NCBI GenBank assembly: GCA_037305845.1 | Contig: CP147778.1 | Coordinates: forward strand, 1,536,001-1,600,000 | Reading direction: 5' to 3' | Length of the DNA: 64,000 nucleotides | DNA from: Candidatus Freyarchaeum deiterrae | GTDB taxonomy: Archaea; Asgardarchaeota; Jordiarchaeia; Jordiarchaeales; Jordiarchaeaceae | Part shown: piece by piece, positions 9,581 to 12,153 of the stretch | How the letters are laid out: every line of letters begins with the position of its first letter | How positions within the stretch are numbered: the first letter of the stretch is position 1 | Notes under the pieces: generated by a model | The model's input: the letters and a program-made list of their open reading frames with translations, nothing else | Database searches by the model: none | What the model was told of the DNA's origin: nothing | Program-made: the position numbers and the translations under genes

Positions 9581-9739
9581 TGGTGCTCCGGACGGGAGTT
9601 TCAAATTAAGTAATCACTTAGTTATTCAATAAAGTAATCACTTAATATTTTGAACCCGTGTCTAGGGATCGATTGGGCTGATGTACATGAGCCCCTTATG
9701 CTTGGCCCTTATCTTGTTTGGCCGCTACACTACCGGAGC
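9581..9739 (-). tRNA. tRNA-Glu(CUC) with three BHB introns (21/22: 9702-9717; 34/35: 9673-9688; 59/60: 9598-9648)
   Basis: Spliced 76-nt cloverleaf: GCTCCGG TA GTGT AGCGGCCAA GCAT A AGGGG CTCTCGA TCCCT AGAC ACGGG TTCAAAT CCCGT CCGGAGC A CCA; helices GGCC/GGCC, GGGC/GCCC, TTCA/TGAA. Confidence 0.9.
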
Positions 9740-10884: not shown

Positions 10885-11073
10885 ATGACCAAAGGAACGC
10901 CAAGCAGGGGCAAAAAAAACAAAAAAACACACATAAGATGCCGTAGATGCGGAAAACACTCCTACAATGTCACGGAAAAATACTGCGCAGCCTGCGGATA
11001 CGGAAGATCAAAAAGAATGCGACGATACAGCTGGCAAACCAAGAAAAATGGCGGAAAAAACAGAGCATACTAA
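10885..11073 (+). CDS. rpl37e: 50S ribosomal protein L37e
   Basis: [27 protein letters not shown]. Confidence 0.97.
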
Positions 11074-11140
11074 AAACCAATCACCCGCGAATAGTGAATA
11101 CACTGACGGAAAATATAGAATAAAGTATAAAAAATATTGG

Positions 11141-11326
11141 GGGCCCCTAGCTCAGCCTGGTATGAGCGCCGCGTTACCCATACCTTATCACTAGAGGAAT
11201 GGGAGCGAAGGCAACTTGATACCAAAATCGCGGAGGCCGCGGGAAACCCCTAACAATAAGTAAGGGTTCGCGAATTCGAATCCGCTGAGAATCCTCTCAA
11301 CGGCGGAGCTCCCGCGGGGTCCACCA
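11141..11326 (+). tRNA. tRNA-Ala(GGC) with four BHB introns (33/34: 11176-11209; 37/38: 11214-11227; 53/54: 11244-11274; 59/60: 11281-11309)
   Basis: Spliced 78-nt cloverleaf: GGGCCCC TA GCTC AGCCTGGTAT GAGC G CCGCG TTGGCAT CGCGG AGGCC GCGGG TTCGAAT CCCGC GGGGTCC A CCA; G3:U70 Ala identity agrees with the reconstructed GGC anticodon. Confidence 0.92.
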
Positions 11327-11561: not shown

Positions 11562-11647
11562 ATCCAATTAGTTGTAAAAACAAAAGATTTAATAGGTTGA
11601 ATAAAAAACTTAATTTCTGCCGTCGTCCGAAATCTCCCAGAATAGGT

Positions 11648-11842
11648 GCCGTCGTAACTATTCACCAAGAAGAATAGCGACAAGCTTAGCCCGGGAGAGC
11701 GCCGGATACTGCCATAAGCATTGCAGAAGGCGAAACTGAAGATCCGGCTGTCGCTGGATCCTGCCAGAACCATTGACAGGAGGCGAATTCAAAGGGAATA
11801 GTGTTTGAAACACTATTCCTGAAACTCCGGCCGACGGCACCA
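11648..11842 (+). tRNA. tRNA-Phe(GAA) with four BHB introns (9/10: 11657-11683; 30/31: 11706-11734; 53/54: 11758-11787; 59/60: 11794-11825)
   Basis: Spliced 77-nt cloverleaf: GCCGTCG TA GCTT AGCCCGGGA GAGC G CCGGA CTGAAGA TCCGG CTGTC GCTGG TTCAAAT CCGGC CGACGGC A CCA; helices GTCG/CGAC, CGCC/GGCG, CGCT/GGCG, TTCA/TGAA. Confidence 0.93.
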
Positions 11843-12046
11843 AAATGTTTATTTATTAGTATAAATATTTATTTTAAATATATTAACGAGGGTGGAGGTT
11901 AGGTAATTATCTATTTCTGGGAAATTTGCATACCTTACTTATTTTCTGCCAAAAAGGGTCGAGGAAATTATATTTTTGAATTTTAAATGATTGGTGCTTT
12001 CTTGGATTGTTGTACTTTTTTGTGATGTGTTTTTTAAAAGTAGGCT

Positions 12047-12153
12047 TGGTGCGGCTGCCGGGATTTTCAGAAAAGTGATTTTTCACTTTTTATTTGAACC
12101 CGGGTAACAAGCTTGGAGGGCTTGTGTCCTAGACCAGTCTGGACTACAGCCGC
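12047..12153 (-). tRNA. tRNA-Gly(UCC) with one BHB intron at 59/60 (12064-12092)
   Basis: GCGGCTG/CAGCCGC A CCA; CAAGC CCTCCAA GCTTG anticodon arm; TTCA/TGAA helix with hairpin intron; 78 nt spliced. Confidence 0.92.

Follow-up and report, generated by a model that had tools for sequence, protein, structure and literature searches.

Does a 195-nt locus that is mostly intron encode a working tRNA-Phe, and is it the tRNA-Phe absent from the published list of an otherwise complete genome? The locus lies in a 64,000-nt stretch of the Ca. Freyarchaeum deiterrae chromosome, which we refer to here as the window and whose positions are used below unless a larger coordinate is given. The genome is a complete 3.58-Mb Freyarchaeia genome from a soil Asgard archaeon and was curated and checked with long reads (Valentin-Alvarado et al. 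2024, PMC11291895). In that study, 92–95% of tRNA genes were intron-containing, mostly at non-canonical positions, and the published list for this genome already has four-intron Arg-TCT, Ile2-CAT and Leu-GAG genes; the 38 tRNAs of the list include no Phe, His, Cys, Glu or Ala-GGC (PMC11291895). Four introns per tRNA are already known from this genome, and what is new is its Phe gene, absent from the published list. Taken as a whole, we consider it very likely that the locus is a working, endonuclease-spliced gene and probably the sole tRNA-Phe(GAA) of Ca. Freyarchaeum deiterrae. The gene and its parts are as follows:

11648-11842, plus strand: tRNA-Phe(GAA) gene, 195 nt, with four introns and five exons
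11648-11656, plus strand: exon 1, tRNA positions 1-9; acceptor strand GCCGTCG, then TA
11657-11683, plus strand: intron 1, 27 nt, at 9/10
11684-11705, plus strand: exon 2, positions 10-30
11706-11734, plus strand: intron 2, 29 nt, at 30/31
11735-11757, plus strand: exon 3, positions 31-53; anticodon GAA at 11738-11740
11758-11787, plus strand: intron 3, 30 nt, at 53/54
11788-11793, plus strand: exon 4, the 6-nt micro-exon TTCAAA, positions 54-59
11794-11825, plus strand: intron 4, 32 nt, at 59/60
11826-11842, plus strand: exon 5, positions 60-73 and the encoded CCA; 3′ end of the gene CGACGGC-A-CCA
11847-11858, plus strand: T-rich trailer, a possible terminator judging by its composition

Excision of 27, 29, 30 and 32 nt leaves a mature product of 77 nt with its CCA encoded, as is the case in about 33 of the 37 published tRNA genes of this genome. 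The spliced 77-mer was called by ARAGORN as tRNA-Phe(gaa), with 21 stem pairs and no mismatches, so that the tRNA-Phe(GAA) with four introns of these lengths, as proposed in the initial annotation, gives a flawless cloverleaf. The same annotation had counted 118 of the 195 nt as intron and had placed all four introns at non-canonical sites, including 9/10; the exon and intron coordinates gave the same count (118/195 nt), and the sites are indeed 9/10, 30/31, 53/54 and 59/60. In the mature tRNA-Phe we read U8, A14, G15:C48, G18G19, G20, U33, G37, G53, C61 and A73, the last followed by CCA. The T-loop is TTCAAAT, the anticodon loop is CTGAAGA (7 nt, with U33 and G37), G20 lies in the D-loop AGCCCGGGA, and A is found as the discriminator base. 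U8, A14, G18G19, U33, G53, the T-loop and C61 are universal tRNA nucleotides, while G20, G37 and A73 are among the hallmarks of tRNA-Phe, with A73 and G20 being identity elements for the yeast and archaeal PheRS. The Freyarchaeum locus was identical in contigs from three DNA sequencing runs and is therefore no accident of assembly, and neither joints nor an intron-less DNA variant of it were found in contigs of four DNA runs.

We then examined the four introns for bulge-helix-bulge (BHB) signals, in which a 4-bp central helix is formed by four exon and four intron nucleotides that end 2 bases ahead of the 5′ and the 3′ cut, respectively, and either strand carries a 3-nt bulge. All four introns fitted this geometry, and among the registers yielding an identical mature RNA only one per intron did so. 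For intron 2, a placement at 31/32 gave the same mature RNA with no BHB motif, and 30/31 was chosen. Intron 1 has the central helix GTCG/CGAC, the bulges TAA and AAG, and an inner hairpin of 6 bp, with the outer helix absent; intron 2 has the central helix CGCC/GGCG, an outer helix of 2 bp and an inner helix of 1+4 bp. In intron 3, the central helix is CGCT/GGCG with one G-U pair, the inner helix is 5 bp and the outer helix 0 bp, and in intron 4 the central helix TTCA/TGAA is accompanied by an inner hairpin of 11 bp and an outer helix that is 0 bp in the precursor and becomes 5 bp (the T stem) once intron 3 is removed.

The introns had been described as each carrying a clean BHB and its own hairpin. 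The cores and the inner hairpins held in all four, whereas the outer helices are missing for introns 1 and 3, are 2 bp for intron 2 and are conditional for intron 4. A strict hBHBh′ motif, with flanking helices of at least 2 bp on both sides, is not what these introns have, since the outer helices measure 0, 2, 0 and 0 bp in the precursor. The Phe signals are therefore relaxed motifs with a strong inner helix, the type associated with alpha2beta2 enzymes. Among random sites of the same length within the window, a 4-bp central helix was present in 2.3%, and together with an inner helix of at least 5 bp in 0.09%. The chance of four such signals at sites dictated by the cloverleaf is approximately 3e-7 to 8e-13, and the four BHB cores far exceed chance. 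When all four central helices were enforced in one fold, its energy was -83.2 kcal/mol, 4.7 above the MFE of -87.9; the central helix of intron 2 was improbable in the thermodynamic folds (0.04–0.10) because the anticodon stem competes with it.

The genome encodes two paralogs of the splicing endonuclease EndA (PF01974, 98.9 and 70.8 bits; 211 and 198 aa) and a single gene for the RtcB ligase (571 bits). The first paralog retains the catalytic residues Tyr, His and Lys, and its nearest match is the catalytic subunit of the heterotetrameric Aeropyrum pernix enzyme (3p1z_B, E=8e-43), while the second is without the His at the aligned place; the best PDB matches of the two, 3p1z_B and 1a79_A, are archaeal EndA subunits. 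These sequences suggest that the splicing endonuclease is probably a crenarchaeal-type alpha2beta2 heterotetramer, and endonucleases of this kind accompany relaxed or non-canonical signals (review PMC4090602). The Thermoproteales tRNAs with several introns, as that review presents them, resemble the locus in having BHB or relaxed HBh′ signals at non-canonical positions, 30/31, 53/54 and 59/60 among them, and probably also in their heteromeric alpha2beta2 endonuclease (PMC4090602), and include the tRNA-Pro(UGG) of Pyrobaculum islandicum with three introns (Sugahara 2007, 2008, as reviewed in PMC4090602). The Freyarchaeum tRNA-Phe differs in having four introns, none of them canonical, and in belonging to an Asgard lineage. 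Position 9/10 is not among the intron positions named in the review text (PMC4090602).

To see how the introns are distributed among relatives, we looked for orthologs and found one in 4 of 5 congeneric genomes, and scans of metagenome and genome contigs with an exon-3 pattern gave further alleles. Three forms were identified:

Four-intron allele: G000 (the Freyarchaeum genome analysed here) and L029 (a 264-kb contig)
Three-intron allele, with exactly the 32 nt at 59/60 missing: G001, G003, G004, G005 and L033
Two-intron allele, with the introns at 30/31 and 59/60 only: L025, L035 and L037

Intron-less junctions were present at 59/60 in the four congeners of the three-intron form (G001, G003, G004 and G005) and at both 9/10 and 53/54 in L025, where exon 1 is contiguous with exon 2. 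These junctions confirm the boundaries at 9/10, 53/54 and 59/60 to the base. The intron at 9/10 is 24 nt in five relatives versus 27 nt here and is absent in L025, and the intron at 30/31 was found in every Freya ortholog as well as in both Atabeyarchaeia genes described below. Between G000 and the four congeners of the three-intron clade, 74 of the 77 exon positions are identical (96%), and two of the three differences make up a compensatory change from C27:G43 to T27:A43. Identity to the relatives is 69–80% in the introns, 71–82% in the leader and 21–27% in the trailer. In G005, the helix strand of intron 2 changed from GGCG to GACG, covarying with C27T in the exon, which supports the central helix of intron 2. 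When G000, L029 and L025 are compared, three base pairs in the hairpin of intron 4 have changed in a compensatory way, which supports this hairpin.

A private and recent gain of the 59/60 intron by the Freyarchaeum genome was considered and was overturned by its presence in L029 and L025. Judging from the allele sequences, a gain of the 59/60 intron is no likelier than its loss in the three-intron clade, whose 27:43 pair is also derived. The occurrence of two-, three- and four-intron forms suggests that the Phe introns have been gained or lost one at a time across the family. The exon-3 pattern had no match in the sister family or in G002, and a search of the sister family with a pattern of the Phe 3′ end returned tRNA-Glu-like genes and no Phe. 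These tRNA-Glu-like genes, found in L017-L022 (G006, G007, G008 and G009), read GGTGGTGTAG... and end in GAGGCACCA, with several inserts, and there are two such loci apiece in G006, G008 and G009.

Beyond the genus, the tRNA-Phe(GAA) genes of two complete Atabeyarchaeia genomes, with three introns each, offer a close comparison, at approximately 90% identity of the mature sequence by eye. They also have introns at 30/31 and 53/54, whose central helices are built in the matching way, GGCG with CGCC and TGCG with CGCA. In contrast to the gene studied here, their third intron is at 22/23 and none is found at 9/10 or 59/60, their introns are unrelated in sequence save for the helix-forming ends, and their 35-nt leaders hold no copy of the acceptor strand.

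In G000, introns 2 and 3 share 83% identity, while the maximum among 2000 shuffles was 77%. In three relatives their identity is 0.90–0.97, with only the last base differing between the two copies within G001 and within G004, and three bases within G005. The states of the loop are common to both copies lineage by lineage, namely CCCC in G001, TTCC in G004 and AATC in G005. The exon context at both 30/31 and 53/54 is CGCYGG, which pairs with the intron GGCG, and the 53/54 intron is absent from the two-intron allele. These patterns fit a history in which the 30/31 intron was copied to 53/54 and the two copies were then homogenised repeatedly in one clade.

We weighed this against the possibility that the likeness of introns 2 and 3 reflects an assembly error or a shared CGCYGG target, with no copying or conversion. 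The relatives are short-read metagenome bins, the two 30-nt repeats are separated by 23 nt, and both introns must end in GGCG-A-N to pair with similar exon sequence. On the other hand, the likeness extends through the unconstrained loop (CCCC in both copies of G001 and TTCC in both copies of G004), the G005 sequence is identical in the independent JGI contig L033, and G000, which was curated with long reads, has 83% identity versus the shuffled maximum of 77%. Error or convergence is an unlikely explanation, even if it is the one among the alternatives treated here that retains most weight, and an origin of the 53/54 intron by copying fits better.

The copying that we suggest would have taken place within one gene. 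Transposition of tRNA introns has been described in Thermoproteales (Fujishima et al. 2010, via PMC4090602), and, as that review outlines it, the two cases are alike in that similar introns lie at different tRNA positions with an exon context fitting the helix-forming end. They differ in that the Phe copies sit in one gene, 23 nt apart, are alike within genomes and have no further copy elsewhere in the genome. A blastn-short search of the genome with the four introns gave chance matches of 13–18 nt and no further copy of any of them, so that near-identical introns across different tRNA genes were not found for the Phe introns, and this argues against transposition between genes as in Thermoproteales. 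A recent preprint reported up to five intervening sequences per tRNA gene and tested intron copying between different tRNA types only, with almost none found (Goswami et al., 10.64898/2026.10.13.758758); the copies described here, in contrast, are within one gene. The census in that preprint was built on tRNAscan-SE gene calls (10.64898/2026.10.13.758758), and since it starts from these calls it is probably without the Phe gene too.

As a separate observation, introns 1 and 4 build their hairpin stems from one pair of 6-mers, CTATTC and GAATAG, whose order is swapped between the two introns in the manner expected of a circular permutation. Given how short these 6-mers are, coincidence is the probable explanation.

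Three elements were identified in the region upstream of the gene:

11589-11595, plus strand: TATA-like box TTTAATA, a likely promoter, within the block AAAAGATTTAATA conserved in five congeneric orthologs
11618-11625, plus strand: leader 8-mer TGCCGTCG, within which acceptor strand positions 1-7 are repeated; predicted to pair with the 3′ acceptor strand as a substitute
11633-11638, plus strand: leader TCTCCC, complementary to the D-arm GGGAGA, paired in the MFE fold and in the five-sequence consensus, and conserved in five orthologs

The TATA-like box is approximately 25 nt upstream of 11618, and approximately 25 nt is the usual archaeal spacing from TATA to start. It is thus probable, given this spacing from a conserved TATA-like box, that the 8-mer is at the 5′ end of the transcript. 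The 8-mer is invariant in all six orthologs with a 9/10 intron, and reads TGCTGTTG, still G-U-pairable, in the allele without it. In the ViennaRNA ensemble, it pairs with 11832-11839 (P=0.996), and the probability of the central helix of intron 1 was 0.002 when the leader was left out, 0.019 when it was present but for the 8-mer and 0.996 when it was complete. With the full leader, the helix of intron 3 rose from 0.22 to 0.84 and that of intron 4 from 0.25 to 0.47 (ViennaRNA). The RNAalifold consensus of five orthologs contains the same leader helix, in columns that are invariant and thus show no covariation. The folding models predict that the 8-mer is needed for the 9/10 cutting signal. The TCTCCC element may act through its predicted pairing with the D-arm.

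The upstream copy of the acceptor strand could instead be taken as the real 5′ exon (11619-11626), followed by a first intron of approximately 56 nt (11628-11683) in which the downstream copy is intronic; the transcript would then start at the first base of the tRNA and the same GTCG/CGAC helix would be used. The upstream copy can indeed form an identical 4-bp helix with a 3-nt bulge after it, transcription is predicted to start at this copy or right next to it, and in the predicted fold it is this copy, not the downstream one, that pairs with the 3′ acceptor strand. The product, however, would have C9 in G000, and C8 together with C9 in G001, G003 and G004, where the nearly universal U8 would be gone; the downstream copy, by contrast, reads GCCGTCGTA (U8 and A9) in all seven orthologs. 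Moreover, the allele without the 9/10 intron joins exon 1 to exon 2 at the downstream copy, and its upstream copy is degenerate. We regard an upstream exon as very improbable and take the downstream copy as exon 1.

With exon 1 at 11648-11656, a course of processing can be proposed, of which the transcription start, the splicing itself, the sequence of steps and what the 8-mer does are our inference, while the anatomy, the conservation, the covariation, the enzyme genes and the predicted folds were established directly. Transcription would begin downstream of the TATA-like box and give a leader of approximately 30 nt. The signal at 9/10 would borrow acceptor nucleotides 4-7, and the folds predict that the spare copy of the acceptor strand in the leader keeps the 3′ acceptor strand paired up to the removal of the 9/10 intron. 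The splicing endonuclease would cut the BHB signals at 9/10, 30/31, 53/54 and 59/60, RtcB would join the five exons, and RNase P would then take off the leader.

Whether the genome has another tRNA-Phe was examined in several ways. The published tRNA coordinates (Supplementary Data 4, PMC11291895) match this genome, e.g., Val-GAC at 1547486-1547561, and the published tRNAscan-SE/R2DT list of 38 tRNAs has no Phe and nothing at 1547648-1547842, the genome coordinates of the locus. ARAGORN, with introns allowed, gave no genuine second Phe. Its sole "Phe(aaa)" call, at 1729004-1729139, was rejected, as the same locus is published as a two-intron Ile-GAT. The Rfam tRNA model, with E up to 10, matched only loci of the published list and one unlisted locus at 1729369-1729443, which ARAGORN calls Trp. 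The Phe locus itself was missed both by ARAGORN (by default and with introns allowed) and by the Rfam tRNA model (at the gathering threshold and with E up to 10).

We also aligned the 74-nt mature sequence to the whole genome allowing introns of 10–200 nt at any position and assuming no motif. The score was 58 at the Phe locus versus 26.5 for the next best, and the halves and the core of the mature tRNA-Phe found no locus but this one. The alignment would miss a second Phe gene that is less than approximately 85% identical or has more than five introns; as the Phe tRNAs of Freyarchaeia and Atabeyarchaeia, which are separate classes, are approximately 90% identical by eye, a genuine second Phe should show in it. 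A structural finder, which took a 7-bp acceptor stem with U8 and CCA as its anchor and then built a GAA cloverleaf across relaxed signals, returned from the whole genome the Phe locus without mismatch and five AT-rich six-intron junk parses with mismatches. It recovered 10 of 30 published class-I genes, and a sensitivity of about one third makes it weak evidence for the absence of a second Phe. A strict multi-intron finder gave 10 real genes and 2 junk hits in the whole genome.

No other Phe tRNA was thus detected by the published list, ARAGORN, Rfam, the intron-tolerant alignment or the structural finder, and the locus is probably the sole tRNA-Phe detectable in the 3.58-Mb genome, which falls short of proof that there is no other. 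The proposal that it functions as a single-copy tRNA-Phe gains support from the conservation of the exons, the compensatory 27:43 change and the presence of EndA and RtcB genes. That the Phe locus is instead decaying or silent, with a working tRNA-Phe elsewhere as split halves, in permuted form or with introns lacking signals, is the least credible of the alternatives: standard tools miss even this gene, the structural finder is about one-third sensitive, and His, Cys and Glu are also absent from the published list, so that hidden tRNA genes clearly exist in the genome, but the cloverleaf has no mismatches and keeps all universal nucleotides, exon identity stays at 96%, with a compensatory stem change, against a background of diverging introns and flanks, the exact signals are kept in seven orthologous alleles, and nothing similar to the mature sequence, be it complete, halved or reduced to its core, turned up at another locus.

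Other tRNA loci were noted in the course of this work. The pair of introns at 53/54 and 59/60 had been reported as shared with the neighbouring tRNA-Ala, and we found the same: in tRNA-Ala(GGC) (11141-11326, plus strand), which is not in the published list, the two introns flank a 6-nt exon (TTCGAA), the 53/54 intron ends in GCGAA, and two more introns appear to lie in the anticodon loop. Downstream, tRNA-Gly(TCC) (12050-12153, minus strand) has one intron near 59/60, and its C33 in place of the near-universal U is the sole deviation noted by the finder. The locus at 9581-9739 (minus strand) is Met-CAT in the published table, and our own finder could not parse it as Glu(CTC); the list for the genome has no tRNA-Glu. 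Outside the window, an unlisted tRNA-like locus at 1729295-1729446 was called by ARAGORN as Trp(cca) with an intron, with an Rfam score of 25.8 bits at 1729369-1729443, and may be one of the missing tRNAs. Except for tRNA-Sec (at 0.81 Mb), the 37 published tRNA genes lie within 1114536-2337289 (1.11–2.34 Mb) of the 3.58-Mb chromosome and so occupy only some one third of it. Upstream of the run of tRNA-Ala, tRNA-Val and tRNA-Phe is a gene for a small zinc-ribbon ribosomal protein (10886-11074, plus strand), L37e-like by eye with a CxxC...CxxC pattern, and an Sm-like gene precedes it.

Three features of the Phe gene appear worth follow-up, namely the natural alleles with and without introns, the intron duplicate within the gene and the helper sequence in the leader. 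They could be joined in one account, in which an intron was copied within the gene from 30/31 to 53/54 and repeatedly converted, introns turned over singly between close relatives, and the 9/10 intron was tolerated only by means of the spare acceptor strand in the leader; the gene would then show archaeal tRNA intron turnover under way. We offer this account tentatively, as a plausible one that we do not yet favour as a whole. If it is true, the spread of tRNA introns in Asgard archaea would be guided by complementarity between the 3′ end of the intron and its target, and helper sequences would evolve outside the tRNA.

The locus supplies a missing essential tRNA-Phe for a complete reference genome of the Asgard archaea, a group used in reasoning on the origin of eukaryotes, and it indicates that whole tRNA genes, not just introns, can escape gene finders in such genomes. 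The natural alleles with two, three and four introns, together with the two copied introns and the 8-mer of the leader, make up a small testable system in which the arrival of introns, their persistence and the folding of a precursor that permits four cuts could be studied.
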